Origin: Candidatus Zixiibacteriota bacterium
Lineage (GTDB): Bacteria > Zixibacteria > MSB-5A5 > GN15 > PGXB01
Direction of reading: 5' to 3'
Assembly (NCBI GenBank): GCA_041306185.1
Contig: JBFZFV010000060.1
Coordinates: 1 to 46,531, forward strand
DNA length: 46,531 bases
The translations under genes and the position numbers were made by a program. Below, piece after piece: positions 18,211-45,069 of this stretch (the first letter of the stretch is position 1; every line of letters begins with the position of its first letter). The notes below the pieces were generated by a model that was not told where the DNA came from, made no database searches, and saw only the letters and a program-made list of their open reading frames with translations.

Positions 18211-18220
18211 AACCTTATCC

Positions 18221-23906: not shown

Positions 23907-23912
23907 GCAGGT

Positions 23913-24707: not shown

Positions 24708-24717
24708 CGGGGGCGTC

Positions 24718-29865: not shown

Positions 29866-30017
29866 ATGGTTCCGTTGTCCTCACTATGATTGTTTATATA
29901 TAAACCACTGTCCTGATATCAATTGACAAGTTTTGTTGTTTAATCTTTCTTTATCCAGATCATTTGGCATCAGTCGTTAATCTTCTAAACCAAAACTTTT
30001 TAAACTGGAGGAGTACT

Positions 30018-31619
30018 ATGTGCAGGTCGCTTAAGGTGTTTTGTGCACTGGTAGCGCTGGGCTTTGCTTTCATTTGTGCTATTGCTGTTGATGCCGAAAA
30101 CGGTGCCAGCGGACAAGCAATCCCGGTCAATCATTCATATAATTCGGTTGATTCCAGGTACGATGGATTGGTCGGGTACTGGAATTTCGATGAAGGTATT
30201 GGCGATATGGCCTATGACCACAGCGGAAATAACAATAACGGAATTTTGCGGAACGGGCCCGGCTGGGCCGCGGGTATTTCAGGGCATTGCCTGGAATTCG
30301 ATGGGATCGACGACTTCGTGGAAATCCTCGATGCCCCAGGACTGGATATTAGTGGAACTGAAATTACCTTCACGGCGTGGGTAAAATCTCCGGCATATCA
30401 TGATTTAGGCTGGATCATGGGAAAGGGGCGGGCAGGTGACTGGAATGAAATGGTCTGGTGGCTACTACCCAGAAGCAATGGTTCCGTCCGATATGCCATT
30501 AAATCAGGAGGATCGACAATCGAGCAACTGGATATTCCGGTCGGTTTGACTCCGGAAGTCTGGCATCATGTCGGGGTAGTGTACGACGGGTCATATATGC
30601 GATTTTACATCGACGGCAGTGAGGCCGATAATGCTCCGAAAACCGGAAACCTGAATACGAACGACGCCTCGATCATCATCGGTTGGGACGCCTGGGCTTT
30701 ATCGAACTACTATTTTGGATCGATCGACGAGGTGAAAATATATTCCAGGGCCCTATCTCCCTCCGAAATGGAAAGCGAATACAGACTGAATATGCCGGCA
30801 CTTTATCTCAATTTTGATGAAGCATCCGGCGATATCGCTTTCGATCAAAGTGGTAACGGAAATAACGGAACTCTGACCGGCGGGACAACCAGGGCATCTG
30901 GTATATCAGGGAGGGCCGCTCAATTTGACGGTATCGACGATTATGTGATTATCCCGGATGCGGTCAGTCTTGACATTTCGGGATATGAAATCACCTTTAT
31001 GGCCTGGGTATATTCCTCGCACTATAATGATTATGGCTATATCATGGGCAAAGGAGAAGTCGGTCCCTGGGAAAATATGGTTTGGTGGCTTTTACCCAGA
31101 ACCAGCGGCGCCGTACGCTACGCCATTAAGTCGGGTGGATCGACCATAGAACAACTGGAAATTCCGGCAGGGCTGACAACCAATGTATGGCATCACACAG
31201 CGGTGGTGTATGACGGTTCCGAAATGAAATTTTTCCTCGACGGTGTCCAGAAAGATTCCGCCCCGAAAACCGGGTTGCTGGATGTAAACGACGCGCCTAT
31301 TTACATGGGTTTGGATGCCTGGAATCCGAGCCACCATTACCTGGGATTGATTGATGAAGCAAAGGTTTTTGCGGCGGCATATCCGGAAATAAAACTAAGA
31401 GAGCATTTTTTTCAGAAAAGATGCGGCGATCTGGACGGAAACGGCATTATCAACATTCTCGATATCATAGATCTCGTAAATTATAAGTTCAAAGGGGGAC
31501 CGGCTCCGGAAGACTTGGGGGTGGCCGATTGTGATGGAAATGGAAGCCTGAACGTTCTTGATATAGTAATGATGGTGAATTATAAATTCAAGGGAGGCAC
31601 GAGGCCGGTCTGCATGTGA
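30018..31619 (+). CDS. Secreted protein with two tandem LamG/ConA-like lectin domains (Laminin_G_3-like) and a C-terminal type-I dockerin. No T9SS CTD.
   Basis: GGAGGA RBS and signal peptide (MCRSLKVFCALVALGFAFICAIA). Two copies of about 205 aa each with L.GYWNFDEG.GD.A.D.SGN.NNG...G and WHH..VVYDGS. The C-terminus (31419-31616) is DLDGNGIINILDIIDLVNYKFKGG + DCDGNGSLNVLDIVMMVNYKFKGG, two Ca-binding-loop segments. Track start 29964 is less likely. Confidence 0.85.
   Translation: MCRSLKVFCALVALGFAFICAIAVDAENGASGQAIPVNHSYNSVDSRYDGLVGYWNFDEGIGDMAYDHSGNNNNGILRNGPGWAAGISGHCLEFDGIDDFVEILDAPGLDISGTEITFTAWVKSPAYHDLGWIMGKGRAGDWNEMVWWLLPRSNGSVRYAIKSGGSTIEQLDIPVGLTPEVWHHVGVVYDGSYMRFYIDGSEADNAPKTGNLNTNDASIIIGWDAWALSNYYFGSIDEVKIYSRALSPSEMESEYRLNMPALYLNFDEASGDIAFDQSGNGNNGTLTGGTTRASGISGRAAQFDGIDDYVIIPDAVSLDISGYEITFMAWVYSSHYNDYGYIMGKGEVGPWENMVWWLLPRTSGAVRYAIKSGGSTIEQLEIPAGLTTNVWHHTAVVYDGSEMKFFLDGVQKDSAPKTGLLDVNDAPIYMGLDAWNPSHHYLGLIDEAKVFAAAYPEIKLREHFFQKRCGDLDGNGIINILDIIDLVNYKFKGGPAPEDLGVADCDGNGSLNVLDIVMMVNYKFKGGTRPVCM
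30170..31400 (+). repeat. Tandem duplication of the LamG-like domain (two copies of about 620 nt, roughly 60% aa identity).
   Basis: Motifs FDGIDD[FY]V, ITF[TM]AWV, MGKG..G.W.NMVWWLLPR, RYAIKSGGSTIEQL[DE]IP.GLT..VWHH.[GA]VVYDGS are collinear between residues about 55-265 and 265-470. Confidence 0.7.
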
Positions 31620-31663
31620 TTGACAGTTTGGCGGATCATTAAGCTAAATAGCTCGCTTTTAAA

Positions 31664-31700
31664 TAGCGTCGGGTATATTTACCGACGCTATTATTTTCTT
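31664..31700 (+). terminator. Hairpin plus T-rich tail after the LamG-dockerin gene. Member of the GCGTC(R)GG hairpin family.
   Basis: TAGCGTCGG-gtatattta-CCGACGCTA followed by ttattttctt. Confidence 0.6.
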
Positions 31701-31765
31701 GCCCTCGTGAAGTCGCGTATCTTATTATTAATAAAGGATATTTATATCTCACAAAGGAGTCAGGG

Positions 31766-32392
31766 ATGATTGAGGGATACAGGTTATCGAAACTGCCGAA
31801 ATACGGCAAAACATTCGTCGCGGCGTTTGCACTATTACTGATCGGAGTGGTCCTCTGGATGGTTTTCCTCGGGGCCATGGAATCCGGCATGATCGGAACC
31901 TCCGATGAACTTGCCGGAAGCGACATCATTCAGGAAGGAGCCCATCAGGGAGAAGTGGAAATTCCTGAAGAAGAAGCGATCGAACCGCTGATAGAAGATT
32001 CCGAACTGGTGACCGCTCCGAACTGGTCCGATTCCGGGGAACAGCGGGTAATCACCGAGGCCGATACCTCCGCTTTCCTCGACACCGAACCGGCGGTGCC
32101 GTTCCGGGATGCTTTCGAAAGCAACCTGGAATGGTCGATGGAACATTTTGCGTCGGAGCTTTTGCTCTTTTTCGCGGCCGGGCTGTTGTTTCTGTTCACC
32201 GGTTATTCCGATAGGCTCAAGCGGTTTTTGTATATCTGGCTGGGGATTTTGATTTTCGTTCACGCCATCGGGATGGCCGGAATGGGTTTCTGCTGGCCGG
32301 CGAATGCCATCATGTACGTGGTCGGGCCGCTGATCCTGTTGACTTTCCTGGTCATGGCGGTGATGATTTTGAAAGACCTCGGCCGTAATTAG
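31766..32392 (+). CDS. Hypothetical membrane protein (1 N-terminal + 2 C-terminal TM helices, acidic middle).
   Basis: AAAGGAG RBS, 208 aa, clear TM segments. Confidence 0.6.
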   Translation: MIEGYRLSKLPKYGKTFVAAFALLLIGVVLWMVFLGAMESGMIGTSDELAGSDIIQEGAHQGEVEIPEEEAIEPLIEDSELVTAPNWSDSGEQRVITEADTSAFLDTEPAVPFRDAFESNLEWSMEHFASELLLFFAAGLLFLFTGYSDRLKRFLYIWLGILIFVHAIGMAGMGFCWPANAIMYVVGPLILLTFLVMAVMILKDLGRN

Positions 32393-32512
32393 ATTTTCAT
32401 CTCGCCCTGATAATCCGGCTATTGAAAAAGGGGTATCGGGCCGATACTTAATTTATAGGGCTTGAGGCCCAAATATGTCAGCCAAACTCGCAACCGGGAG
32501 CCGGACAGGAAG

Positions 32513-32773
32513 ATGAAAGAGAAATTTGTCACGCTGTTTATTCGCGCCTTGAAAGAGGGGGATTACGACGAAATCGAACGCCTCCTCGAATACATGAACA
32601 ACCACAAAGACCATTATGCCGCCATCGCGCGGGAAATGGGTGACGACGATTTCGACCGGCTCGAAGAAGCCTACCAGTTTGGAGCCCGGAAGAAGGGGTT
32701 CTTCAACGATGCTCAGCGGGACAAAATAATCCGGTTCACCAAGGGGCTGGAAAAAGCATCATACGCGTATTAG
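32513..32773 (+). CDS. Small hypothetical protein. Alternative start at 32462.
   Basis: 86-103 aa open frame of helical, charged composition (EIERLLEYMNNHKDHYAAIAREMGDDDFDRLEEAYQFG). Confidence 0.4.
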   Translation: MKEKFVTLFIRALKEGDYDEIERLLEYMNNHKDHYAAIAREMGDDDFDRLEEAYQFGARKKGFFNDAQRDKIIRFTKGLEKASYAY

Positions 32774-32806
32774 GATTTAAGACAGTTCCAATTTCTTATT
32801 GGGAAT

Positions 32807-32849
32807 GCGTCAGGTCACCGCTCGCAAAGCCTCGCTAAGGACCTGACGC
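32807..32849 (+). repeat. Intergenic hairpin element, copy A of the GCGTC(R)GGTCAC...GACC(Y)GACGCAACT family.
   Basis: GCGTCAGGTC - 23-nt loop - GACCTGACGC, a perfect 10-bp stem with no U tail. The flanks GGTCAC and GCAACT are shared with copy B. Confidence 0.6.
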
Positions 32850-32908
32850 AACTTCAAATACCCAAATATTTTTCAGCTTAACGAGCCTCAATTGAGTATT
32901 ATATCTAT

Positions 32909-33805
32909 ATGGCGACCGATTACCGCAGATACCTCGATCCCGAAATCGTCGGCAAACTGAAAGGGATGGAACTCCGCGCCCGGATGGTAGTGGAGGGATT
33001 CATCGCCGGGCTGCATAAGTCTCCGTACCACGGCTTTTCGGTGGAATTCGCCGAACATCGTCAATACATGCCGGGAGACAACATCCGGAATATCGACTGG
33101 AAAGTTTTCGCCAAGTCTGACCGCTACTATATCAAGCAGTACGAAGAAGAAACCAATCTGAAAGGCTATCTCCTATTGGACTGCTCGGCCTCGATGGGTT
33201 ACACTTCCGGCGGGACGGTCAAGCTGGAATATGCTTCGCTCCTGGCGGCATCACTGTCGTTCATGATGCTGAAACAGCGGGATGCGGTGGGACTGGTGAC
33301 CTTCGATGAAAAGATTCGGCGCTATATTCCTCCGCGGTCGAAATCGGGGCATATCCATGTGATGCTTCAGGAACTGGCCAACCAGAAAGCCTCGGACAAG
33401 ACCGACATCGCTTCGGCTCTCCACGAAATGGCGGAACGGATTTCCCGCCGGGGGCTGGTGGTTATCTTCTCGGATTTACTCGACGACCCTCACGAAATAA
33501 TATCGGGGTTGAAGCATTTCCGGCATAAGAAGCACGAAGTCATTCTTTTTCATATCCTCGATCCCCGCGAGCGGGATTTCGCTTTCCCGCAGGAAGCGAT
33601 TTTCAAGGATTTGGAAACCGGCGAAGAACTGACCACCCTTCCGTGGCAGATCCGCAAACACTTCAAAGAAGCAACCGAGGCTTTTTCATCCCGGATTGCC
33701 GCGGAATGCCGGCAGAGTCGGATCGATTATCACCTCATCGACACTTCGATGCCGTTCGACAAAGCCCTCTACGCCTTCCTGGCCAAACGGGAACGGCTGT
33801 ATTGA
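32909..33805 (+). CDS. DUF58 (vWA-like) protein. The usual MoxR partner.
   Basis: YHGFSVEFAEHRQYMPGDNIRNIDWKVFAKSDRYYIKQYEEE DUF58 signature. Confidence 0.85.
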   Translation: MATDYRRYLDPEIVGKLKGMELRARMVVEGFIAGLHKSPYHGFSVEFAEHRQYMPGDNIRNIDWKVFAKSDRYYIKQYEEETNLKGYLLLDCSASMGYTSGGTVKLEYASLLAASLSFMMLKQRDAVGLVTFDEKIRRYIPPRSKSGHIHVMLQELANQKASDKTDIASALHEMAERISRRGLVVIFSDLLDDPHEIISGLKHFRHKKHEVILFHILDPRERDFAFPQEAIFKDLETGEELTTLPWQIRKHFKEATEAFSSRIAAECRQSRIDYHLIDTSMPFDKALYAFLAKRERLY

Positions 33806-33924
33806 TATATTAAATCTTTCCATTATTTCGAATTTCCTTGACCCCTTTCCGAACAAAACCTATATAAGTCCTTGCTTGAAATTGAAATATACCCTAACCC
33901 AAAACTAACCGACGGAGTGTAAAT

Positions 33925-34197
33925 TTGGCTATGAAGAGAACTTGCTTTTTATATATATTTTCGGCCGCCTTTGCGGCCTGCATGGGGCTGGCCTTTATGA
34001 CCGGTTGCGGTTCGAATGACCCGAACGCGGAGGCTAAGAAGATTCTGGAGGACCGCTGCCAGATGTGTCATGATCTTCCGCAGAAGAACATGAAAGCCCC
34101 GGAAGAATGGAAGCCGTTTCTGGAAGGACATGCCGCCCGGGCCGAGCTGACTCAGGAACAGGTCGAAACCCTGGCGAAATATCTGGCCGCCAGATAA
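33925..34197 (+). CDS. Small lipoprotein mono-heme c-type cytochrome.
   Basis: Lipobox LAFMTGCGS and a single CxxCH (RCQMCHD), 90 aa. Confidence 0.6.
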   Translation: MAMKRTCFLYIFSAAFAACMGLAFMTGCGSNDPNAEAKKILEDRCQMCHDLPQKNMKAPEEWKPFLEGHAARAELTQEQVETLAKYLAAR

Positions 34198-34263
34198 TTT
34201 TATGGGAACCAACTTAACTGCCGCAGGTAGAATGGTGAAGCGGACGGGGACGGGACAATCATC

Positions 34264-36663
34264 GTGACCAAGTATTCATTACGCAGTCTTTATACGGCTT
34301 TGCTGATGGTGCTGATTTTCGGCGCAGTCGGTAAGGCCGCTGTTCTTGAGGGGACAGTCCGGGACTTGGATTCCGGCGACCCGATTCCACAGGCGACCAT
34401 TCGCGTTCTCAACACCGGCCTGACCGCCATGGCCAACGACGACGGCCGCTACCGGCTCAAACTCAAGCCGGGATTATATAACCTCAAGTTCAGCCATATC
34501 GCGCATTATTCCGGAACCGAATATGTCAATATCCCCGAAGGGGATACCACTGTGATACTCGATATCGGCCTCAAGCCAAGCACGATTATCCTGAAAAAAA
34601 TCACCGCTTATTCCAAACGGTACGGGCCGGGCGAAAGAATCATCCTCGAAGCCATCAAACGGAAACAGGAAATACTCGACAAGCTGAAATCGTACACCTT
34701 CGATGCTTACAGCAAAGTGGTGGCATCGGACCACAGCAAATCCGCCGAAGAAATCCTGGTTATCCTCGAAAGCCAGGTACAGGCATACTGGCAAAAGCCG
34801 AACGATTTCAAGGAAGTGATCCTGGCCCGAAGACAGACGGCCAATATCGATGCCGCAGAGAACCTTCTGTCGGTAGGGCAGCTTTTAAATTTTAACCAGA
34901 ATCGTCTCGACCTGGGGAGGTACAATGTCGTATCTCCGACCGCCGAGGATGCCCTGGATCATTACAATTATTATCTGGCAGATACCTTGTACTTCGATGG
35001 CGCCCCGGTATTCCGGCTGGAAATCGAACCGAAGAACGAAACCGAGCCCCTTTTCGCCGGGACGATCGACATCGCCGACAGCACCTATGAAGTGGTGGGG
35101 GTCGACGTGACCTTCAGCAAAGGATTCGATACCCGGTTCATGAAAGATATCCGCTATACCCAGACTTATGCCGAATTCCAGAACGAAATCTGGATGCCGG
35201 TCGAAATCCGCTTCACGGCGCTATTGAAACTCGGCATTCCGGCCTTCCCGGATATCGATGTCGATTACGCGGCAACCCTGCACAATTACACTTTCACGGT
35301 CGAAGAACCGGAGAGGGTCTTTGACGGCTACGTTATCGAAGTCGCTCCGGACGCCGACGCCGCCGACACTTTGATCTGGGCCAGGGCGCAAATCACTCCG
35401 TTAACCGAATATGAGAAATCCGAGTACAATCGGATTGATTCGGTTGAAAATGCTCCGAAACCGCTGGCCCAGCAAGCCCTGATATATGGGCTGGGTGCGG
35501 TTTTCGTGGCGATGTTCGAGCCGAGTATCTTCCATTTTAGCCGTGTTGAAGGAGCCTACCTGGGACTGCCGCTGGATTTCAAGTTCTTTAATGACCGGCT
35601 TACCACGAAACTGGAAACAGGCTATGCTTTCGACGCCAAGCTCTGGCAGCATCGCTACGGCCTGGAGTACCGGCTCAACAATATCCCGGAAGTCAGCATC
35701 GGCGGAGAATACCGCAAGCAGGTAACAAAAAGAACGGTCCTGCACCATCCTTTCGCCGACCTAAGTAACACCGCAGGAGCGCTGTACGATGGCCACGATC
35801 CGGACGACTACTACCTCAAGGAAGGCTTTACGCTCAATATAAAGGGCTCGCCCGTGCGCAAGACCAGGGTAGAATTGAGCTATAACGATTATCTGGAATC
35901 TTCACTGGCCAAAACCACCGATTTTACCCTTGACGACTGGTTCGATTCGGACAAGAACGATTCCATCGTGGACCATCGCGACAACCCTGCGATTATGGAC
36001 GGCCGGCTGCGGTCGGTCGGAGCCAATTTCAGCTGGGATAACCGTCCCCTGATAAAGGACAAAGGAATCGTGAAAAAACTCCCGATTACCGAATACACCG
36101 CGTTCGGACTCGGTATCGAAGTGGCCGACCCGGATTTAATCGACAACGATTTCGAATTCACCCGGATGACCGCAACGGCGTTTCGGCGGCAGCGGTTTTT
36201 CAACCTGGGGATAACCAATATTTTCGTCACGGCCGGGTGGTCCGATAAGTTCCTCCCTCCGCAGCACTATTTCACGCAGGATTTCGGAGAGGGCTTCATG
36301 ATTTCGCGCCTCCGCTTCAAGACCCTCGGAAACAAGACCTTTTTGGGCGACCGGGCGGTTTCGTTCTATGTCGATCATAATTTCGGGAGGACCCTCTTCA
36401 TGAAGAGCGGCATTCCGCTTGTGAAGGATATCCCCTTTTCGCTGGGCGTGCACGGCGGAGGATTCCTGACCCGGTTCGAACATCAGCCCGGAATCTTTTA
36501 TGACGAACATTACCTCGCGGCGAAGAACTGGTATCGGGAATTCGGGTTTTCGATTACCGGGATTACGATCTTCGATATCGGAGTCTATTTCACCTGGCAG
36601 TTATCGGATTATAATACTAACGATTTCTCGGTCAACATGAATATGGGGTTGCTGCAGTTTTAG
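34264..36663 (+). CDS. Large secreted protein with an N-terminal CarboxypepD_reg-like domain and a beta-rich body (DUF5686-like, Bacteroidota-type).
   Basis: Signal peptide, then VLEGTVRDLDSGDPIPQATIRVLNTGLTAMANDDGRYRLKLKPGLYNLKFSHIAHY; a long aromatic-rich C-terminal region ending GLLQF. Confidence 0.7.
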   Translation: MTKYSLRSLYTALLMVLIFGAVGKAAVLEGTVRDLDSGDPIPQATIRVLNTGLTAMANDDGRYRLKLKPGLYNLKFSHIAHYSGTEYVNIPEGDTTVILDIGLKPSTIILKKITAYSKRYGPGERIILEAIKRKQEILDKLKSYTFDAYSKVVASDHSKSAEEILVILESQVQAYWQKPNDFKEVILARRQTANIDAAENLLSVGQLLNFNQNRLDLGRYNVVSPTAEDALDHYNYYLADTLYFDGAPVFRLEIEPKNETEPLFAGTIDIADSTYEVVGVDVTFSKGFDTRFMKDIRYTQTYAEFQNEIWMPVEIRFTALLKLGIPAFPDIDVDYAATLHNYTFTVEEPERVFDGYVIEVAPDADAADTLIWARAQITPLTEYEKSEYNRIDSVENAPKPLAQQALIYGLGAVFVAMFEPSIFHFSRVEGAYLGLPLDFKFFNDRLTTKLETGYAFDAKLWQHRYGLEYRLNNIPEVSIGGEYRKQVTKRTVLHHPFADLSNTAGALYDGHDPDDYYLKEGFTLNIKGSPVRKTRVELSYNDYLESSLAKTTDFTLDDWFDSDKNDSIVDHRDNPAIMDGRLRSVGANFSWDNRPLIKDKGIVKKLPITEYTAFGLGIEVADPDLIDNDFEFTRMTATAFRRQRFFNLGITNIFVTAGWSDKFLPPQHYFTQDFGEGFMISRLRFKTLGNKTFLGDRAVSFYVDHNFGRTLFMKSGIPLVKDIPFSLGVHGGGFLTRFEHQPGIFYDEHYLAAKNWYREFGFSITGITIFDIGVYFTWQLSDYNTNDFSVNMNMGLLQF

Positions 36664-36670
36664 GTTTGAG

Positions 36671-36728
36671 GCGTCGGGTCACAATTTCGGATTCGATATT
36701 GCCCAACTCCGAAATCAAGACCCGACGC
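36671..36728 (+). repeat. Intergenic hairpin element, copy B of the GCGTC(R)GG family, with a nested inner hairpin.
   Basis: GCGTCGGGTC ...(AATTTCGGA...TCCGAAAT)... GACCCGACGC. Relative to copy A it carries a compensatory A-T to G-C change at the sixth stem pair. Confidence 0.6.
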
Positions 36729-36741
36729 AACTGAAAAGCAT

Positions 36742-36778
36742 GCGGTCAGGTCGCTTCCGGGTCTGACCGCCTTTTTTA
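36742..36778. terminator. Bidirectional rho-independent terminator between convergent genes.
   Basis: GCGGTCAG-gtcgcttccggg-CTGACCGC followed by cttttttatt. A-rich on the other side. Confidence 0.75.
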
Positions 36779-37696: not shown

Positions 37697-37947
37697 TTTC
37701 GCAAGTATCCCTTATGTGGAGTTAGGAGTTGGGTCAAAAATATAACGGGTCACGGCTTAAACCAAGCTTAAACTCGCGGCATTAGGGAGAAAATCTTGAC
37801 CAAAATGTATCAGGGTGATTTTTAATAAGTTACATAAAAATTCCGAAAAATGATTGCCGGGCGGGTCAAGAAATGGCTTAAATGAGCCAAAAGCCGCTAT
37901 TTTAGCGGTCTGCTTAATTTTTTGGCAGATTTAGGGAACTTTTTCTA

Positions 37948-37976
37948 TTGACAGGCAGTGACTTTGGGCTTATATT
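37948..37976 (+). promoter_or_regulatory. Sigma70-like promoter: TTGACA, 17-nt spacer, TATATT.
   Basis: ttgaca-ggcagtgactttgggct-tatatt. It would give an approx. 340-nt leader for the 38325 gene. The host may use a different consensus. Confidence 0.4.
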
Positions 37977-38324
37977 CCATTCGCGTAATGAATAAGTGTA
38001 AAGTCCGCAGAAAAACCTTGTTAACGTAATAAGGTGATATTGGTCTTCAAATATCTCTAAAGTACAAAAGTTTAAGTAACTTTAGACTACTCCATTCAAT
38101 TGGTGGCGGGGGGACCGCCAGAAAATTGGAACCTACGAGTTGCAGGTCTGTTTGATTGTGACCGGCTGAACTAAATGGTAATAATACCGATAACATTCAG
38201 TAATAACAATTTAGCTTCCACAGATTTGCGGATTTTTGGGAATTTTTCCAAAGGACGAGGAATAAGAGCTTAATTCGCTAAGGGATTACTTTGGGACCAA
38301 AAAACCTAATTTAGGGAGGATGGA

Positions 38325-39593
38325 ATGCTCGCATTACATCTCAAAAAAGCAAGGTTGCTCAGCTTTAGCGGATTGCTGACGATACTGATTGTTCTGGCCA
38401 TTTCGACCCCGGCCCAATCCGTGGATTTAATTGTCGATATCCGAGACACCACCGGCACCGCCGGCGAAATCGGCTCGGCAGTATCTGTTTACATGGATAA
38501 TTTCAATCAGGAGATTGCGGCCTACACATTGTGGATTGTGTTGAGTAATCCCCATATCCTGAAATTCAATACCGTCTTGGATACGCTCGAGTACGAGCAT
38601 TTCTACTCCTACACTGAATTCGATCCCCTCAATCCCGACAGCGCCATCGATTCGGTCGAGGCTTCTTTATACTGGGTCTGTCAGGACTGGGAGGGGCAAA
38701 CCTGCACCGATTCCATTCAGATGCTCGGATATTATCATTGCAACAACTACGCCATCCCCGGAGATATTACCAGCTGTACCGACTCCACTTTTATCGACGG
38801 CTATGACGTCTTTTATCTTGAGGAACGGGCGGCCTACCGAGGCACCTTCGATACTACCGGAACTTTGACTTCGGGTTGGGAGCGGGTGGAAACCAGGTCG
38901 GTCGGTGTGGCCGGGACCGAAGGTTTCAATATGGTGATTTCCGCTCTGGCCAATGAAGCCGCGCCCCCCTATACTCCCGGAATCCCAATTCAATCCGGCT
39001 CTGATACTCCATTGATAAGAATCAAAGGGGATGTTTTCGACATCGCCCCCGACGATACCAACCGCACCGTCAATATTACTATAGCATTAGGCACCCTTGA
39101 TTATTTCGGATTCTCCGATGAAGCGGGGAATTCCATCGGGATCGTCACCGACACGGTTATCGACACATTCTATTATGAATGTTACGATTGGGTCCCGCCG
39201 GTTCCTCCGCTCACCGATTCCACCTGCGGATGGTGGGAGCGCGTTCAGGAAGAGCCCGAAGGGGGCGCCGACAGCATGAGGATCGTTTATAAGCCGGTGG
39301 GGCACCTCGATACCAATCTGGTGAAGGTTTATAGCGGGATATTTACCGTACTGGCCGGCGTTTGCGGCGATGTCAGCGGTCCCCAGTCGGGGGTCCCGGA
39401 CGATAATGTCAATATTCTGGATATCATCTTTTTGGTGAATTATAAATTTAAGGGAGGGGCGGCGCCGATATATTTGGCGATGGGGGACACCAATTGCGAT
39501 ATTTCGGTCAACATCCTCGATATCGTCAGGATGGTGAACTTTAAATTCAAGAACGGCCCGGATTTAATTTGTTGTCCGGCCTTGTGGCCGTGA
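38325..39593 (+). CDS. Secreted protein with an N-terminal cohesin-like beta-sandwich and a C-terminal type-I dockerin pair. No T9SS CTD.
   Basis: GGGAGGA RBS and signal peptide. The N-terminus VDLIVDIRDTTGTAGEIGSAVSVYMDNFNQEIAAYTLWIVLSNP resembles the start of a cohesin. The C-terminus (39363-39590) is DDNVNILDIIFLVNYKFKGG + NCDISVNILDIVRMVNFKFKNG, the same dockerin class as the LamG protein. Confidence 0.8.
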   Translation: MLALHLKKARLLSFSGLLTILIVLAISTPAQSVDLIVDIRDTTGTAGEIGSAVSVYMDNFNQEIAAYTLWIVLSNPHILKFNTVLDTLEYEHFYSYTEFDPLNPDSAIDSVEASLYWVCQDWEGQTCTDSIQMLGYYHCNNYAIPGDITSCTDSTFIDGYDVFYLEERAAYRGTFDTTGTLTSGWERVETRSVGVAGTEGFNMVISALANEAAPPYTPGIPIQSGSDTPLIRIKGDVFDIAPDDTNRTVNITIALGTLDYFGFSDEAGNSIGIVTDTVIDTFYYECYDWVPPVPPLTDSTCGWWERVQEEPEGGADSMRIVYKPVGHLDTNLVKVYSGIFTVLAGVCGDVSGPQSGVPDDNVNILDIIFLVNYKFKGGAAPIYLAMGDTNCDISVNILDIVRMVNFKFKNGPDLICCPALWP

Positions 39594-39940
39594 TTGCCGG
39601 ATTTTAACATCCGGCTCGCACGGGCCTAACAAAAATGTGCTTTAGTGGGTAAGTAAGTGAGTATGCAATCAATAATCGCAATTAAAGTTAACCTTTAACT
39701 GACAATGAGAGAAAGGAGGTGGCACTTAAAAGAGGTAATTTCTTTATAACACGCGCTCAAGAGAAAGAAACCTGTTGTACTAACCTTTGTTTCTTCATGA
39801 AATTGCCCGATTTCTGATTGGCTTGTGGCTCTCGCTGATTGGAACTCTAAAAGGTGATTTCGAACCCTGAGGGGGAAAAGACTCGAGTTTCGAGTTTAAA
39901 ATCGAATGTTAATGTTAACGAATCAAAATAGGAGCACACG

Positions 39941-42559
39941 ATGAAACGGCTTACTTTATTATTTGCCTTATCGTTTGTCCTTCTTTCTTTTGGGCTTTCT
40001 AATGCAGTTGAATGGGATACCTACATTGCACCCAGCAATTTCTGGGATAATGGCGGAACTCCGACACTCCAGGGCAATGCTTCCATCGTCGCTGAAATCC
40101 GCGGCGGTAACGTCCAGGATCCGCTCGGTCTGTCCGGCTTTAACTTCAATTGCATGATCTATGGCACCGGCGACCTTACCAGCGTAACCCTTACGGGTGA
40201 TTATGGTTTGGAAGATAACGAGGCCTTCACTCCGATCATTGGTCTCGAAGAAGACTGGAGCGTCTTTACCTGGGGCTTCACTTTCTACTACGAAGATGGC
40301 TTTGATGGCGTCCTTCCCGATACCTTCGCTCATTCCGTAGTATCGGCTGGAGCCGTGGGTTGGGATGAAACGGCAATTACTACGAAGTATTTGATCCACA
40401 TGACTCTCCCGTTCGCCGATGAAACCCCGGCTGGTGAGCTTTGCTTCACCAATGTTGTCGGCCATCCGAATGGTGACCACGACTGGCTGTTCCCGGAAAC
40501 TGCCACCTTTGCTTCGATTTGCTATCCGGTTGCGGTTTCTCCGGATCTTCCTCCGGTAGTTGATTGCGACGCTCTGCCGCCTCAAATGACGACTCAGCAT
40601 CATGTTGCTTTCAATTTGGCCGGAATCCCGGTTTCTGACCCGGATGGACAGCAGGTTACTTCTGTTACTGCTACCAAGGGTACTGTAACCTATACTGCAG
40701 GTGCCCCGACCTTCAGCTGGACCTATGATCCTCCGTGCTCGGAAGTCGGTCAGTCTGTATCGGTCGTATTCCAGGCTCATAATGCTCTTGACGGCCCGAC
40801 CTGCACCGTTGACCTGGTTGTCAACAACACCGCTCCGGAGATTGCCGGCGACTGCGGCGAAACCATGACTGTCGGCACCACTTCCGGTGGTACCGCTCAG
40901 TTTACGGCCACCGATGATAACAGCGGCGACACCAAAGACTGGTCGATTACCGATTTTGGAGGCCATCCTGGCCCTATTACCGTTGATCCGACTGGTTTGG
41001 TTAACTTTGCCGCTGCCGCCGAAGGCGATTATGTTGTCGAAGTTACCGTGACCGATTGCGCTGGTGACACTGATGCTTGCACCTTCACCATTCACTCGGT
41101 TGGCGAACTTCCCTTCGTGATTGCGATTGAGAAGGAAGAAGGCCCGGAAGGCCTTGGCGCCTATCAGGGTATGCACACCCAGGTTGACGTTGTGAAGGTT
41201 TCCGGTACCGAAGAAATCATGGGCTTTGATTTCCTCATTGCCTATGATGCTACCGCTCTGGCCTTCACCGGCGCTATCGCCGGCCCGATGTTCTCCATGG
41301 CCGAGCCGTGGGAATATTTTACCTTCAGCTATGGTCCTAACGGTTATTGCGGCGCTGGCTGCCCGACCGGTATGATCCAGGTTGTCGGTATTGCCGACCA
41401 GAACAATGGCCCGGCTCATCCGTCAACGTTCTTCGTTCCTGATGACACGGTCCTGTTCAGCCTCGACTTCCTGGTTTCCAGCGATTACACTCTGGAATGC
41501 CAGTATATCCCGGTTCAGTTCTTCTACATGGATTGCGGCGACAACTCGCTCGCTTTCCACAAGCAGGTTTGGGTTGATTACGATGTTCGCCAGGCGATTG
41601 CCACCGATGTCCGCGGTTACGACGGTACTGCGGATGGCTATCTGATTCCGCCGACCTTCGAATTCCCGACCTTCGCGATCGACACTTCGGTCTGTATCAA
41701 CGAACTGGAAGAGAATTTGAAGAAGTGGCCTGTTCCTTTCATCACGCTGTTCAACGGCGGCGTTGATATCATCTGCGTAGAAGATATCGACGATCGCGGT
41801 GACGTCAACCTCAACGGCGTTTCTTACGAAATTGCCGACGCGGTTGTCTTCACGAACTACTTCCTGTATGGAATGGCTGCCTTCACGATCAACCCGGCCG
41901 GTCAGAAAGCTGCCACCGACGTCAACGCCGACGGTGTCATCCTTTCGGTTGCCGACCTTGTTTACTTGATTCGTGTAGTCGTTGGCGATGCTCTGCCGCA
42001 TCCGAAGATCAACCCGGTTGCCACCCCGGCTCAGATTGCTCAGAACGGCGACGTTCTCAGTGTTGATGCCGAGCTCGGCGCTGCGGCCTTCGTGGTCGAA
42101 GGAGAAGTCCTTGGTTTGGCTTCCGGTTCGCAGGGTATGGAACTGAAGACCACCGTTCGTGACGGTCTCACCTATGGTGTCATCTACAGCTTCGACAAGA
42201 ACGCGACCTTCAGCGGCGAATTCCTGAACATCAACGGCCGTCTGGCCTCGATCGAAGGCGCCAACTATGAAGGCGCTCCGATGAAGTTCGTCGCTCTGCC
42301 GACTGCTTTCTCGGTTAAGAACTATCCGAACCCGTTCAACCCGACCACCACTATCGAAATGGCTCTCCCGGTTGCCTCCAACTGGACCCTTTCGGTCTAC
42401 AACGTGGCCGGCCAGAAGGTTAAGGATTTCAACGGTTACAGCGAAGCCGGTACTGTCAAGGTCGTCTTTGATGCTACCAGCTATGCTTCCGGTATTTACT
42501 TCTATAAGTTCCAGGCTGATCAGACTGAGATCACCAAGAAAATGGTCCTTATTAAGTAA
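39941..42559 (+). CDS. Scaffoldin-like surface protein: signal peptide, Ig/cadherin-like domains, cohesin-like domain, dockerin-like repeat pair, T9SS CTD. Candidate abundantly expressed surface-layer component.
   Basis: AGGAG RBS and SP MKRLTLLFALSFVLLSFGLSNA. Cohesin-like segment at about 41099-41557 (...EIMGFDFLIAYDATALAFTGAIAG...IQVVGIADQNNG...VLFSLDFLV...IPVQFFYMDCGDN). Dockerin-like GDVNLNGVSYEIADAVVFTNYF + TDVNADGVILSVADLVYLIRVV. CTD at 42308-42556 (KNYPNPFNPTTTIEMALP...SGIYFYKF...KKMVLIK). Codon usage is distinct (GGT/GGC, GCT/GCC, CTT third positions). Strong terminator immediately downstream. Confidence 0.85.
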   Translation: MKRLTLLFALSFVLLSFGLSNAVEWDTYIAPSNFWDNGGTPTLQGNASIVAEIRGGNVQDPLGLSGFNFNCMIYGTGDLTSVTLTGDYGLEDNEAFTPIIGLEEDWSVFTWGFTFYYEDGFDGVLPDTFAHSVVSAGAVGWDETAITTKYLIHMTLPFADETPAGELCFTNVVGHPNGDHDWLFPETATFASICYPVAVSPDLPPVVDCDALPPQMTTQHHVAFNLAGIPVSDPDGQQVTSVTATKGTVTYTAGAPTFSWTYDPPCSEVGQSVSVVFQAHNALDGPTCTVDLVVNNTAPEIAGDCGETMTVGTTSGGTAQFTATDDNSGDTKDWSITDFGGHPGPITVDPTGLVNFAAAAEGDYVVEVTVTDCAGDTDACTFTIHSVGELPFVIAIEKEEGPEGLGAYQGMHTQVDVVKVSGTEEIMGFDFLIAYDATALAFTGAIAGPMFSMAEPWEYFTFSYGPNGYCGAGCPTGMIQVVGIADQNNGPAHPSTFFVPDDTVLFSLDFLVSSDYTLECQYIPVQFFYMDCGDNSLAFHKQVWVDYDVRQAIATDVRGYDGTADGYLIPPTFEFPTFAIDTSVCINELEENLKKWPVPFITLFNGGVDIICVEDIDDRGDVNLNGVSYEIADAVVFTNYFLYGMAAFTINPAGQKAATDVNADGVILSVADLVYLIRVVVGDALPHPKINPVATPAQIAQNGDVLSVDAELGAAAFVVEGEVLGLASGSQGMELKTTVRDGLTYGVIYSFDKNATFSGEFLNINGRLASIEGANYEGAPMKFVALPTAFSVKNYPNPFNPTTTIEMALPVASNWTLSVYNVAGQKVKDFNGYSEAGTVKVVFDATSYASGIYFYKFQADQTEITKKMVLIK
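42308..42556 (+). other. T9SS type-A C-terminal sorting domain of scaffoldin-like protein 1.
   Basis: Same motif architecture (KNYPNPFNPTTTI...SGIYFYKF...KKMVLIK). Confidence 0.8.
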
Positions 42560-42577
42560 GACCGCATAAACTACTGT

Positions 42578-42611
42578 GGGGAGGGGAGTCACCCTCCCCG
42601 CAGGTTTTTTT
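42578..42611 (+). terminator. Strong rho-independent terminator.
   Basis: GGGGAGGG-gagtca-CCCTCCCC followed by gcaggttttttt. Confidence 0.85.
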
Positions 42612-42681
42612 AAAGGAGTGCTAACGGCAGATTAGTTAACGAATAAAAGAATAGAGAGAATATAGCAGGAAAGATCGGATG

Positions 42682-42736
42682 GCCCTTAAGTCGAGTAGTT
42701 CAAAGGATCCCGCAAGGATTAGGGGCTTTTTTATTT
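42682..42736 (+). terminator. Orphan terminator-like hairpin plus U tract about 100 nt after the previous terminator. Possible 3' end of a small RNA.
   Basis: GCCCTTAA - 30-nt loop (with inner GATCC-cgcaa-GGATT stem) - TTAGGGGC, followed by ttttttatttt. Confidence 0.4.
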
Positions 42737-43077
42737 TAAGGCAGGGATTGCCAACATTGTACATACTTGCACTGCTTTGCAACTTTCTTGAAGAAAATTT
42801 GAGAAATATCACGAGTGACCTTATACCCTCACCTCTAATCAGAGAAATGTTAATCAAAGGTTGCTTATAAGGCCGTCGCTAAGGGACTGAAGAAAGAACT
42901 GTAATTTTGTAAGGTTTTGTCCGCCATACTATAAAGGACGCAGTTCGGTACCAAACGGCGCTGGAAACGGATTGGGCCTGTAAGTATAAGAGTGACCGGA
43001 GAATTGAAAAATATTTGGTCTGGTTATTGCTCGGTTAAGAGTTGATTTTCTGTCCGGGCTTTGAGGAGTAATAGGGT

Positions 43078-45069
43078 TTGCAAGAGCGAATTATCACAAA
43101 AACAGCGGCTTTTCTGGTTGTCCTGATGGCATTTTGGGGAGGAGCCGAGGTTTCGGCGGCCGGACACGCTCCGGAATTTCGGGCGATTTCGAATCCGACA
43201 ATTTACGAAGGAGAAACCTTGACGGTTGAACTTAGAGCCACCGATTCCGACAGCGAACCGCTTGTTATTAATATGGTTACACGGCCCTTAGGCGCGAGTC
43301 TCAACGACCACGGAAACGGCACCGCGACCTTTGTCTGGAACGCCGCTTTTGACGGTCCCAACAGCTCGCTTAGCTCTCCGTTCGAAGTGACTTTCCGGGT
43401 CAGCGACGGAAACCTGGCCGACCTTACGACGATGAAAATTACCGTTTTGAATAATAACCGCAAGCCGGTCATCGACCCCGTAGGTGAAATAGATTTCATG
43501 GCTGGCGATCTGGTTGCATTTAACATTTCCGGAGCCGATCCGGACAACGACCCGCTTTCCTGGCGGATTCTGGAAGGTCCTGAGGGACTTACACTTGACG
43601 GGACAGGCCGGGCCAGCCAGGTAACCTGGGATTCAGAATATGCCGATTCCGGCAGTTTTGCTGTTAAAATGGCACTTAGTGATATTTATGGCGCCTCGGA
43701 TACCGCCGATTTTGCGATAACTCTCGAAGGACAAACCGTTTACGCTCTTACGGTCGGCGAGGCTACCGGATACCCCACGGAAATGGTCGATGTCGATGTC
43801 TATCTCGACAACCTGGAACCTATTTCGGGACTGAATCTGCTGGTCCACTACGATGTTTCGGCCCTGATTCTCGGAGCGATTTCCGAAGCCGGGACCCGTA
43901 TCGAAGATTTCGAATATTTTACCTATTACCTCAATTACCTCAATCAGCCGGGACATATCAAAGTTATCGCGATTGCGGACAAGAACAATCCCTCGGTCAC
44001 CCTGGCTCCCGGGTCCGGTTCGATTCTGACAATGCGCTATGCCATCACCAGCGATTATAACTATTCGGGGTTTGCGATCCCGATCCAGTTTGCCTTCGAA
44101 GATATCTTCACGCTCAACGACAACACCCTGACCGACCCGAACGGAGCCAAAATTCCGCAGGAGGCGATCGTTTATGACAACGGTTCGGTCCTGATCAAAA
44201 TCGCGGACGTGAATTCCGTCGGCGATATCAATCTCAACGGAGTCAATTTCGAAATTTCCGATGTCGTGTACTATACCAATTTCTATATCTACCCGTCGGG
44301 TTATCCGCTCAATGCCGAGCAGCGGGCCAACGCCGACGTTAACCGGGACGGAGTCAGTCCTTCGATTGCGGACCTGGTTTACATGATTCACTATATCGTC
44401 AATCGCGGGACCACTTCCGCCAAGCCCCGTTATTTCGGGAATCCGGCGGCGGTCGCGGTGCAAAACCGGGACGGCGTTTTCAGTTTCGCTTACGAGAGCG
44501 GAGTCGAAATCGGCGGCCTGGCCGTGACGGTTGTTTCCGGCGATACGGAACTGGCCGAGCAGGACATCGTCAGCACCATGGAACAAAACGGCATGACGGT
44601 CAAGAAGAGCGTCGAAAACGGCACGGTGCGGCTGATCGCCTACAGCGACAGCGGGCGGCATCTTGACGGCGGCGTCAACGAATTTTTGAAAATCAAGAGT
44701 AATGCCAATATAAATTTAGTCGACTTTCAGCTATCCACGATCGAGGGGGCGCTGATCCCGGTAACGCTCAAGGACGAGGGTATACTTCCGGAAGGATTCC
44801 GGCTTTATCAGAATTATCCCAATCCCTTCAATCCCGTTACCGAGATTCGCTTCGTAGTCCCCGTCGATTCGAAAGTGGAACTGACGGTATTCAATGTCCT
44901 GGGGCAACAGATACGCTCGCTTGCTTCGGGACGGCTTCCGGCCGGAAGTCATACCGTCACCTGGGACGGGACGGACGACGAGGGGACCCCGGTTTCGAGC
45001 GGCATATATTTCTACCGGTTATCGGCCGGAGAATATCAGGACAGGAAAAAAATGGTTCTCCTTAAGTGA
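43078..45069 (+). CDS. Paralogous scaffoldin-like surface protein: Ig/cadherin-like domains, cohesin-like domain, dockerin-like pair, T9SS CTD.
   Basis: TTG start with GAGGAG RBS; SP MQERIITKTAAFLVVLMAFWGGAEVSAA. Cohesin-like segment (TVYALTVGEATGYPTEMVDVDVYLDNLEPISGLNLLVHYDVSALILGAI...IKVIAIADKNNP...ILTMRYAI...IPIQFAFED). Dockerin-like GDINLNGVNFEISDVVYYTNFY + ADVNRDGVSPSIADLVYMIHYIV. CTD at 44797-45066 (QNYPNPFNPVTEIRF...SGIYFYRL...KKMVLLK). Confidence 0.85.
   Translation: MQERIITKTAAFLVVLMAFWGGAEVSAAGHAPEFRAISNPTIYEGETLTVELRATDSDSEPLVINMVTRPLGASLNDHGNGTATFVWNAAFDGPNSSLSSPFEVTFRVSDGNLADLTTMKITVLNNNRKPVIDPVGEIDFMAGDLVAFNISGADPDNDPLSWRILEGPEGLTLDGTGRASQVTWDSEYADSGSFAVKMALSDIYGASDTADFAITLEGQTVYALTVGEATGYPTEMVDVDVYLDNLEPISGLNLLVHYDVSALILGAISEAGTRIEDFEYFTYYLNYLNQPGHIKVIAIADKNNPSVTLAPGSGSILTMRYAITSDYNYSGFAIPIQFAFEDIFTLNDNTLTDPNGAKIPQEAIVYDNGSVLIKIADVNSVGDINLNGVNFEISDVVYYTNFYIYPSGYPLNAEQRANADVNRDGVSPSIADLVYMIHYIVNRGTTSAKPRYFGNPAAVAVQNRDGVFSFAYESGVEIGGLAVTVVSGDTELAEQDIVSTMEQNGMTVKKSVENGTVRLIAYSDSGRHLDGGVNEFLKIKSNANINLVDFQLSTIEGALIPVTLKDEGILPEGFRLYQNYPNPFNPVTEIRFVVPVDSKVELTVFNVLGQQIRSLASGRLPAGSHTVTWDGTDDEGTPVSSGIYFYRLSAGEYQDRKKMVLLK
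44797..45066 (+). other. T9SS type-A C-terminal sorting domain of scaffoldin-like protein 2.
   Basis: QNYPNPFNPVTEI...SGIYFYRL...RKKMVLLK. Confidence 0.8.

Follow-up and report, generated by a model that had tools for sequence, protein, structure and literature searches.

Two dockerin classes in a candidate T9SS-linked cohesin-dockerin locus of a Zixibacteria-like bacterium

Genes and modules of the window

In the window, which is the whole stretch of 46,531 nucleotides that was analysed, a LamG gene and members of a four-gene cluster encode four dockerins (two of each of two classes), three modules with a cohesin fold and a pair of T9SS C-terminal sorting domains (CTDs).

29964..31619, + strand: LamG gene; secreted protein with two LamG domains (Laminin_G_3) and a class-1 dockerin at its end, without T9SS CTD
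31419..31616, + strand: class-1 dockerin of the LamG protein, aa 486-551 (doc1 HMM 94 bits)
38325..39593, + strand: cluster gene 1 (38325 protein); signal peptide, cohesin and class-1 dockerin, without CTD
38421..39353, + strand: cohesin-fold module of the 38325 protein, about aa 33-343
39360..39590, + strand: class-1 dockerin of the 38325 protein (doc1 HMM 97 bits)
39941..42559, + strand: cluster gene 2 (39941 protein)
41093..41776, + strand: cohesin-fold module of the 39941 protein, aa 385-612
41777..42016, + strand: class-2 dockerin of the 39941 protein, aa 613-692
42020..42298, + strand: conserved X module of the 39941 protein, aa 694-786 (xmod HMM 68 bits)
42299..42556, + strand: T9SS type A C-terminal sorting domain of the 39941 protein (TIGR04183 43.8 bits)
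43078..45069, + strand: cluster gene 3 (43078 protein)
43714..44199, + strand: cohesin module of the 43078 protein, about aa 213-375 (coh HMM 111 bits)
44200..44433, + strand: class-2 dockerin of the 43078 protein, aa 375-452 (doc2 HMM 94.6 bits)
44788..45066, + strand: T9SS type A C-terminal sorting domain of the 43078 protein (TIGR04183 36.4 bits)
45129..46531, + strand: cluster gene 4, cut by the window end

The 39941 protein consists of a signal peptide, an N-terminal region, a Big_9 Ig domain, the cohesin, the class-2 dockerin, the X module and the CTD, and the 43078 protein of a signal peptide, Big_9/cadherin-like Ig repeats, the cohesin, the class-2 dockerin, a region of about 118 amino acids and the CTD. 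The visible part of gene 4 encodes a signal peptide, an N-terminal beta-rich region, a Big_9 Ig domain and the start of a further beta-rich region. A sequence-only reading had placed four dockerin-like segments between 31419 and 45066; all four lie where it put them, and its two class-2 strings were recovered from the 39941 and 43078 proteins. When HMMs specific to each class were run over all six frames of the whole window (E ≤ 1e-4), they returned exactly these four modules (doc1 at 94 and 97 bits, doc2 at 135 and 95 bits) and no further dockerin.

CTDs were assigned where the TIGR04183 or PF18962 model matched above its curated cutoff (23 for TIGR04183) at the extreme C-terminus. Both TIGR04183 matches exceed this cutoff and run to the last residues, and domain model searches gave no CTD match in the LamG or 38325 protein, in agreement with the earlier statement that class-1 proteins lack a CTD.

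The cohesin modules have the nine-stranded jelly-roll fold and match solved cohesins. As an isolated segment, the 43078 cohesin scores 25.7 bits against Pfam Cohesin (PF00963), over the gathering threshold (GA) of 24.1; the 39941 and 38325 segments gave no PF00963 match at E ≤ 10, and precomputed Cohesin matches in homologues from related loci are weak or faint. The 38325 cohesin, which had gone unnoticed in the first reading, carries long beta-hairpin insertions and belongs to a sequence family distinct from that of the other two (coh38 versus coh in hhalign: only 48%, E 1.8e-4). The window ORFs encode neither glycoside hydrolase nor other CAZyme domains, and no enzyme with a dockerin was found among them. 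The window therefore does not represent a cellulosome sensu stricto, since its sole dockerin cargo is the protein with two LamG domains and each protein has a single cohesin.

Two homologous dockerin classes

In both classes, an EF-hand-like Ca loop (D-x-[DN]-x-[DN]-G ... D) and the helix after it make up one segment, and two such segments stand in tandem, with loop 1 of the 38325 protein as the exception. Both classes are homologous to solved dockerins and share their fold. The conserved D/N positions suggest that the modules bind calcium.

The LamG protein ends in ...CGDLDGNGIINILDIIDLVNYKFKGGPAPEDLGVADCDGNGSLNVLDIVMMVNYKFKGGTRPVCM, with two loops of 12 residues, VNYKFKGG after each, and Cys486 and Cys550 flanking the module. 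Pfam reports Laminin_G_3 (1.6e-47) and Dockerin_1 (29.2 bits, over the GA of 22.9), and in a phmmer search of the PDB this single sequence matched dockerins 8x39 (6e-10) and 5nrk_B (2.7e-6) and also calmodulin EF-hands (1e-5 to 1e-3). The 38325 protein ends in ...CGDVSGPQSGVPDDNVNILDIIFLVNYKFKGG...GDTNCDISVNILDIVRMVNFKFKNGPDLICC, with the tails VNYKFKGG and VNFKFKNG; its Dockerin_1 (PF00404) score of 18.4 bits is under GA, but most of its homologues do carry PF00404. The canonical 12-residue loops ascribed to class 1 as a whole are present in the LamG protein but not in the 38325 protein, in which loop 1 has a 6-residue insertion, common to its closest relatives in the family alignment, and loop 2 is without Gly6. 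Across the class-1 family, the loops are 12 residues long in 26/29 (loop 1) and 20/20 (loop 2) instances, and the two halves of the module are near-identical to each other. The VNYKFKGG tail had been called unusual, yet it is the norm for dockerins of this clade: [FY]KGG occurs in 56 of 120 matches, and a Cys lies within the last 8 residues of 114 of them. The class-1 profile matched 22 PDB chains containing dockerins (best 6e-7), and class-1 proteins are already annotated as Dockerin_1 in Pfam and as dockerin type I in NCBI.

The class-2 dockerins read GDVNLNGVSYEIAD... / TDVNADGVILSVAD... in the 39941 protein, with loops of 13 residues, and GDINLNGVNFEISD... / ADVNRDGVSPSIAD... in the 43078 protein. 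The proposed one-residue-longer loop is borne out by the family, in which loop 1 has 13 residues in 322/339 instances and loop 2 in 254/255, and the two halves differ from each other, unlike those of class 1. The split into two classes is thus real rather than due to chance, with loop lengths of 13 versus 12 across the families. The idea would have failed if class 2 were not homologous to dockerins; alignment and profile comparison show that it is. The two class profiles align at 95.6% (hhalign, E 1.2e-8), the doc1 HMM cross-matches the 43078 class-2 dockerin at 19.5 bits, and the top four PDB matches of the class-2 profile among 177,635 sequences were all dockerins (E 1.4e-3 to 1.6e-2), each of the four alignments needing a 1-residue gap in both loops. 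Against PF00404 (GA 22.9), the 39941 module reaches 14.4 bits when the whole protein is scanned and 20.1 bits in isolation, the 43078 module gave no match at E ≤ 1, and 15 of 28 class-2 modules matched at E ≤ 1 (best 9.9e-5). At the sequence level, these comparisons show class 2 to be a large dockerin subfamily without annotation that Pfam scores below threshold. It comprises at least 1,234 clusters at 50% identity (E ≤ 1e-10), and its proteins are named in public records only as "T9SS sorting domain protein" or "hypothetical".

Module order and a conserved four-gene cluster

The architecture census covered 266 class-2 proteins with 341 doc2 instances. A cohesin directly precedes doc2 in 284 of the 341 cases (median gap 1 aa) and the X module follows in 271, such that Coh-Doc2-X behaves as a single repeat, with one to four doc2 copies per protein. 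The terminal module is a CTD in 209 proteins and a class-1 dockerin in 37; doc2 is the final module only in proteins that appear truncated. Class 2 had been described as sitting just upstream of the CTD, but a 93-residue conserved X module intervenes in the 39941 protein and about 118 residues in the 43078 protein. The X module itself had no PDB sequence match at E ≤ 10. Mean pairwise identity is 60% for doc2, 40% for the cohesin, 29% for the X module and 44% for the CTD. Proteins with doc2-doc2-doc1 and without cohesin exist (11/146), 19 doc2 instances lie near the N-terminus, and coh-coh-doc2 proteins contain cohesins without a following Doc2; therefore, free plugs as well as free sockets exist.

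In about 50 of 83 loci, coh-doc2-xmod-ctd has a Coh38-Doc1 gene as its immediate upstream neighbour, and downstream there is usually a second coh-doc2-ctd gene and then a fourth gene with dockerin and CTD. The genes 38325 (Coh-Doc1), 39941 (Ig-Coh-Doc2-X-CTD) and 43078 (Ig-Coh-Doc2-CTD) together with the fourth gene thus form a cluster conserved across about 50 genomes. The gene-4 product is 47% identical over 463 aa to an orthologue (E 1e-134; Big_9 39.3 bits), and complete orthologues extend beyond the part visible here, with a dockerin of a third class, a Pfam cohesin and a T9SS CTD. The MAGs are labelled Zixibacteria, Ignavibacteriales or Calditrichota, in partial disagreement with one another.

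Specificity, assembly and known systems

Since the two dockerin classes are homologous but distinct in sequence, more than one binding specificity is plausible. We hypothesize, with about even confidence, that the region is part of a non-cellulosomal, T9SS-linked cohesin-dockerin surface assembly in a Zixibacteria-like bacterium. CTD proteins would be exported by the T9SS and then retained on the outer membrane, and class 1 would act as a terminal recruiting plug that joins proteins without a CTD to a cohesin on an anchored one; the proteins so recruited would be the LamG lectin-like protein and the Coh-Doc1 adaptor in this window, and whole (Coh-Doc2-X)n chains in relatives. Class 1 in place of the CTD would set the hierarchy, and class 2 would be an internal dockerin variant giving a rigid Coh-Doc2-X building block. 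Because it is the most conserved module of the family, class 2 most likely contacts a shared partner in trans, for which the distinct cohesin of the adjacent Coh-Doc1 gene is a first guess, and such contacts would tie the anchored units together as a hetero-oligomer or lattice. The specificities of the classes may differ through loop length and helix residues. Counting against this model, the CTD-less class-1 proteins have a Sec signal only and would still have to cross the outer membrane, and no dockerin-bearing enzymes were found in the window.

A further point against contact in trans is that the near-zero linker and the predicted two-domain model of the 39941 cohesin and class-2 dockerin (pTM 0.78; pLDDT 81-92 across the junction) are equally compatible with a cis arrangement, in which class 2 packs on the cohesin of its own chain. 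Class 2 might then be a Ca-stabilised intramolecular module that packs on the preceding cohesin or stiffens the Coh-X junction, its trans partner having been lost or never having existed, with class 1 as the only working plug. The single-repeat behaviour of Coh-Doc2-X and the unlike class-2 halves, set against near-identical class-1 halves, are consistent with this explanation. However, class 2 also occurs without a preceding cohesin and cohesins without a following Doc2, and Doc2 is far more conserved than the adjacent cohesin, contrary to what co-evolution with this neighbour alone would lead one to expect. We regard this explanation as doubtful, though worth keeping in view.

It was also suggested that the classes parallel the type-I/type-II split that sets assembly order in cellulosomes, with cargo class 1 and scaffoldin class 2 binding separate cohesin classes; the class-2 partner would be a dedicated cohesin class on another anchoring protein. 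The existence of two homologous, clearly separated classes with fixed loop lengths stands, the cluster has at least two cohesin sequence families, and the strong conservation of class 2 is as expected of a module fitting a common partner. The parallel does not extend to the position, anchoring role or type-II similarity of class 2. Type-II dockerins are C-terminal on scaffoldins and are preceded by an X module, whereas class 2 is internal, follows a cohesin, is itself followed by X and is repeated up to four times per protein, and its placement as a type-II dockerin was rejected. A closer relationship to type-II dockerins was likewise rejected: the significant PDB matches of its profile (3ul4_B, 4dh2_B, 4fl4_A and 4uyq_B) are type-I or type-I-like, and the type-II chains 2b59_B and 5k39_B were matched only by the class-1 search. 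Furthermore, the T9SS CTD already anchors the class-2 carriers, which leaves no need for class 2 in an anchoring tier, and since proteins of otherwise like make-up end in either the CTD or class 1, class 1 is the better candidate for setting a hierarchy. Given the additional cohesin in the 38325 protein and the third dockerin class in gene 4, both of which were missed, two tiers are probably too few. Overall, a type-I/type-II-like order seems unlikely.

A more elaborate form of the surface assembly, for which we see only a slim chance, is that the four-gene cluster builds a defined hetero-oligomeric surface fibre or lattice of Coh-Doc blocks via orthogonal Doc1, Doc2 and Doc3, with class 1 replacing the CTD by piggy-back export. 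In the periplasm, CTD-less proteins would dock on a CTD protein's cohesin and cross the T9SS as a folded complex, and this would account for the exchange of class 1 for CTD, and vice versa, at the end of otherwise matching proteins. Repeats of a generic EF-hand-like Ca-binding or adhesion type on independent adhesins, resembling dockerins but without cohesin-dockerin pairing, would accommodate the sub-threshold Pfam scores of class 2, the calmodulin matches of class 1 and the lack of enzymes in the cluster, but we consider them extremely improbable.

The proposed surface assembly can be compared with known systems. The clostridial type-I/type-II system (e.g., C. thermocellum enzymes-CipA-SdbA/OlpB) shares the cohesin jelly-roll, the duplicated Ca-loop/helix dockerin, more than one dockerin sequence class per organism, terminal dockerins on non-scaffold proteins and a suggested hierarchical surface assembly. 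It differs in that the host here is diderm, the anchor is a T9SS CTD rather than SLH or sortase, class 2 is internal and repeated, directly after the cohesin and before the X module, no CAZymes are found in the window, and each window protein has one cohesin instead of a tandem array. In Ruminococcus flavefaciens group-1 dockerins, which are found in no other species and sit at the C-terminus of enzymes, only the second repeat has 13 residues (Rincon et al. 2010, PMC2930009; 5m2o_B), whereas here both repeats do, in an internal module of Zixibacteria-like MAGs. The dockerin of Ruminococcus bromii Amy4 (amylosome) recognises the cohesin of its own protein, giving multimers (PMC4611034), and with both modules on one polypeptide is a precedent for self- or hetero-polymerising Coh-Doc proteins. 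However, Amy4 is an enzyme (GH13) of a Gram-positive host, and its dockerin lies at the C-terminus, apart from the cohesin, while the proteins here are non-enzymatic, with the dockerin abutting the cohesin and a CTD or second dockerin class at the end. For the Cloacimonadota "Ca. Stygibacter", a CTD-anchored scaffoldin with dockerin-bearing enzymes was proposed, in a description that mentions neither a dockerin of a second class nor a Coh-Doc fusion nor a conserved cluster of four genes (PMC8542988). That organism is likewise an FCB-group diderm with Sec signals on dockerin proteins and a T9SS-type CTD on the cohesin protein for surface attachment, but its cohesins are arrayed in tandem, together with CBMs, on a single large scaffoldin, and its dockerins are borne by hydrolases. 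The class-2 subfamily, the Coh-Doc2-X repeat and the T9SS linkage were not found in the literature searched; Peer et al. 2009, which is cited in PMC8542988 and is said to treat non-cellulosomal cohesin/dockerin modules, itself lay outside that search. The A. fulgidus cohesin 2xdh is an example of such a non-cellulosomal module.

Among high-affinity protein "Lego", cohesin-dockerin pairs have been studied best and are in wide synthetic-biology use, and almost all that is known of them comes from Gram-positive cellulolytic Firmicutes. Here, a subfamily with 13-residue loops in both repeats lies directly after a cohesin, and the four-gene cluster that contains it is conserved in a diderm phylum without cultured members. 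Should the classes prove orthogonal, they would provide new specific pairs for designer assemblies and a first handle on Zixibacteria cell-surface organisation, possibly including how CTD-less proteins get there.

Dockerin modules and genes of the window

When class-specific HMMs built from family alignments were run over all six frames of the whole window (E ≤ 1e-4), exactly four dockerin modules were recovered, falling into two sequence classes. The dockerin strings quoted in a sequence-only reading of this DNA were all found in place, and its statement that the class-2 calcium loop is one residue longer was borne out across the families: the loop has 13 residues in 322 of 339 and 254 of 255 class-2 instances, as against 12 residues in 26 of 29 and 20 of 20 class-1 instances, so that loop length is a fixed character of each class. 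The module of the 43078 protein (proteins are named here by gene start) belongs to class 2, with raw scores of 94.6 bits for the class-2 and 19.5 bits for the class-1 model.

Genes and features of the window
16441-25125, origin-proximal housekeeping block (yidC, mnmE, mnmG, rsmG, parA, parB, M23 peptidase, bactofilin)
29964-31619, + strand, LamG protein gene: two LamG domains, then a C-terminal dockerin
31419-31616, + strand, class-1 dockerin of the LamG protein (HMM 94 bits)
31419-31421 and 31611-31613, + strand, its flanking Cys486 and Cys550
38325-39593, + strand, first cluster gene (422 aa)
39360-39581, + strand, class-1 dockerin of the 38325 protein (HMM 97 bits)
39363-39365 and 39567-39572, + strand, its flanking Cys347 and Cys415-416
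39941-42559, + strand, second cluster gene (872 aa)
41777-42016, + strand, class-2 dockerin of the 39941 protein (HMM 135 bits)
42020-42298, + strand, X module of the 39941 protein (family alignment A5)
43078-45069, + strand, third cluster gene (663 aa)
44200-44433, + strand, class-2 dockerin of the 43078 protein (HMM 95 bits)
45129-46531, + strand, fourth cluster gene, running off the window end

General models recover little of this. In scans of the full proteins with Pfam Dockerin_1, only the LamG protein exceeded the threshold (29.2 bits vs. 22.9); the 38325 protein reached 18.4 bits, the 39941 protein 14.4 bits and the 43078 protein gave no match, the class-2 dockerins thus yielding sub-threshold matches only. 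The NCBIfam scan of the full proteins returned no dockerin or cohesin match, and no cohesin was found by the direct Pfam scan either. When isolated, the cohesin segment of the 43078 protein scored 25.7 bits against the Pfam Cohesin threshold of 24.1. The 38325 protein consists of a signal peptide, a cohesin that the sequence-only reading had overlooked, and a class-1 dockerin. Compared with the cohesins of the 39941 and 43078 proteins (hhalign, 48%, E 1.8e-4), the 38325 cohesin is, at the level of sequence, a member of a different family. As had been claimed, the class-2 proteins end in a T9SS C-terminal sorting domain (CTD; TIGR04183, 43.8 and 36.4 bits), which the class-1 proteins lack; the latter carry a Sec signal only.

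The genes lying between these four are unrelated (a membrane protein, a DUF58/VWA protein, a DUF5686 outer-membrane protein and a hydrolase), and no carbohydrate-active enzyme was found anywhere in the window. The window is chromosomal, with yidC-mnmE-mnmG-rsmG-parA-parB nearby. Cumulative GC skew rises almost continuously, with small dips at about 2-4, 34-36 and 40-42 kb; since there is no sustained reversal, neither a replication origin nor a terminus switch can be seen in the window. As a rule, MoxR and DUF58 genes are neighbours. Here, the stretch between the MoxR-type AAA ATPase (25364-26362) and the DUF58/VWA protein (32909-33805) holds the LamG-dockerin gene, a gene for a T9SS beta-propeller protein (27454-29808), a peroxiredoxin-like ORF and two ORFs for which Pfam gave no match. 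The peroxiredoxin (AhpC/TSA) ORF (26826-27275, + strand) starts with TTG and matches profile positions 48-123 only; it may be N-terminally truncated or have a mis-set start. Three ORFs on the - strand (39968-41419, 41423-42592 and 43633-44661; 483, 389 and 342 aa) lie wholly within the 39941 and 43078 genes, and their translations are of low complexity, with many R, G and N residues. Most likely, they are mechanical ORFs opposite real genes.

Two dockerin classes

Class 1 is the ordinary dockerin of this clade. At E ≤ 1e-5, its profile matched 419 proteins, almost all of which bear the PF00404 annotation and some of which NCBI names 'dockerin type I repeat-containing protein [Zixiibacteriota]'; in the PDB it matched 22 chains with a dockerin (best 6e-7). 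PF00404 is likewise found in most homologues of the 38325 protein. The KFKGG tail, which had been thought unusual, is not so here, because the family consensus is CGD...NILDI..LINY.YKGGP.P...C and [FY]KGG occurs in 56 of 120 family matches (CGD in 81). The modules are flanked by an invariant Cys right before the first GD and by another Cys within the final eight residues (114/120). An 'intramolecular clasp' has been described for some dockerins, and this Cys pair may be a putative disulphide version of it. Loop 1 of the 38325 dockerin (39375-39419) contains a six-residue insertion (GDVSGPQSGVPDDNVNILD) that its closest relatives (P0122-P0126) share and remoter members of the family lack; calcium site 1 may be altered or lost.

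For class 2, a family profile was needed, since a single sequence gave nothing significant in the PDB: the dockerin 4dh2_B had an E-value of 0.26 and ranked behind an alanine racemase. By contrast, a profile of 28 modules (alignment A2) searched against 177,635 PDB sequences returned dockerins in all top four places (3ul4_B, 1.4e-3; 4dh2_B, 2.7e-3; 4fl4_A, 0.012; 4uyq_B, 0.016), and in every alignment each of the two dockerin loops needed a gap of one residue. Comparison of the class-1 (A4) and class-2 profiles aligned 60 columns at 95.6% probability (E 1.2e-8), and these single-residue insertions appeared again. Therefore, judged by its profile matches, class 2 is a dockerin, and the homology on which the sequence-only reading had staked its proposal is upheld. 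That the segments belong to the CTD, or that they are EF-hands unrelated to dockerins, is ruled out by the intervening X module, the dockerin fold and the lack of EF-hand profile matches.

Class 2 is a large subfamily without annotation. Among 1.84 billion cluster representatives, its profile matched 1,540 proteins at E ≤ 1e-3, of which 1,234 remained at E ≤ 1e-10; a single protein may hold as many as five copies. PF00404 was precomputed for only three of the 120 best homologues of the cohesin-class-2 region, and in each of the three it came from an extra C-terminal class-1 dockerin. A census of the domains in 266 class-2 proteins with 341 class-2 dockerins showed that a cohesin precedes the dockerin in 284 instances (median gap, one residue) and that X, a conserved module about 95 residues long, follows it in 271. 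This cohesin-dockerin-X unit may be repeated up to 3-4 times, and cohesin-dockerin-X-CTD is the dominant architecture. Of the 266 proteins, 209 have a T9SS CTD as their last module and 37 a class-1 dockerin; class 2 takes the final position only in truncated-looking proteins. The same bodies of repeated units end in either a CTD or a class-1 dockerin (e.g., P0085, P0100, P0120); P0301 and P0305 have a CTD plus an internal class-1-like match. The census also contains proteins with an extra cohesin lacking a class-2 dockerin.

Class 2 had been placed just upstream of the CTD, which does not hold: a 93-residue X module intervenes in the 39941 protein, and about 118 unassigned residues occupy the corresponding place in the 43078 protein. 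The X module had no PDB sequence match at E ≤ 10 and no similarity to the cohesin and CTD profiles (hhalign).

A conserved four-gene cluster

Named homologues come nearly all from Zixibacteria MAGs. In the relative GCA_041306145.1, the 422-aa protein recurs at 98% identity, with the same 872-aa gene next downstream, and Big_9/cohesin/CTD genes again lie downstream of 38325 homologues that share 39% and 33% identity. Scanning a single genome for each species gave 527 relatives of the cohesin-class-2 region. In a six-frame census, a 38325-type cohesin-class-1 gene is followed by a cohesin-class-2-X-CTD gene at about 50 of 83 loci, usually succeeded by a second gene of this kind (with or without X) and then by a fourth that encodes a dockerin together with a CTD. 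The window has the same order, namely 38325, 39941, 43078 and the cut gene at 45129, which is 47% identical to the fourth gene of locus L008 over 463 aa (E 1e-134).

Complete orthologues of the fourth gene (L008, 12057-14561; L004, 11962-14520; L010, 11988-14441) encode a third dockerin class (YGDVNLDKQVNVADMVNVVAYIIGNYGL...ADIVQDGIVNVVDLIGIINTVFG), which is internal, has 12-residue loops and scores up to 24.3 bits with Pfam Dockerin_1. In these three, Pfam Cohesin matches after the dockerin (L008, L010) or at the N-terminus (L004), and the CTD is always the C-terminal end. In hhalign comparisons, neither beta-rich part of the cut gene, N-terminal or C-terminal, matched cohesin significantly (probability ≤1.5%); the orthologues' Pfam Cohesin matches lie at positions other than these parts.

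Locus L002 keeps the order DUF58 - DUF5686 - ... - cohesin-class 1. Many MAGs (loci L006, L007, L010, L012, L017 and others) combine a near-identical cluster organisation with the label 'uncultured Ignavibacteriales/Ignavibacteriaceae', 'Planctomycetales' or 'Calditrichota', while Zixibacteria is the label of their closest relatives. This means that the family is spread over more than one phylum or that the automatically assigned MAG labels cannot be trusted.

Possible roles of the dockerin classes

The sequence-only reading likened the two classes to the type-I/type-II split of cellulosomes. The division into two classes stands; the analogy itself is imprecise. In cellulosomes, the type-II dockerin is a C-terminal module preceded by an X module, and it anchors the scaffoldin. 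Here, by contrast, the T9SS CTD provides the anchor, class 2 is internal and directly follows a cohesin, class 1 alternates with the CTD, and PDB profile searches revealed no special similarity of class 2 to type-II dockerins.

It is plausible that the dockerin classes have more than one binding specificity. On the reading we favour, class 1 would be a terminal recruiting plug for proteins without a CTD, used by the LamG cargo, by the cohesin-class-1 adaptor and, in relatives, by entire chains of cohesin-class-2-X units. Class 2 would be an internal plug in a rigid cohesin-dockerin-X block, probably binding a shared partner in trans, for which the cohesin of the syntenic 38325 protein is the obvious candidate, and the third class would add one more specificity. 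The main rival explanation is that class 2 is purely structural and packs in cis, which is favoured by the one-residue linker to the cohesin and the confident cohesin-dockerin junction in the predicted model. Against it speak the existence of cohesin-less proteins with two class-2 and one class-1 dockerins and the stronger conservation of class 2 (mean pairwise identity 60%) than of the neighbouring cohesin (40%). Class 2 is the most conserved module overall, the CTD having 44% and X 29%.

Parts of this arrangement are known elsewhere. A 13-residue calcium repeat is known only from the second repeat of Ruminococcus flavefaciens group-1 dockerins (PMC2930009), a cohesin and a dockerin in one protein make multimerisation possible, as in R. 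bromii Amy4 (PMC4611034), and a CTD-anchored scaffoldin with dockerin enzymes has been proposed for Cloacimonadota (PMC8542988). Our literature search for Zixibacteria with dockerin, cohesin or cellulosome found no paper making the link. Taken together, what we describe is a lineage-specific subfamily of internal dockerins and a conserved cohesin-dockerin gene cluster tied to the T9SS.
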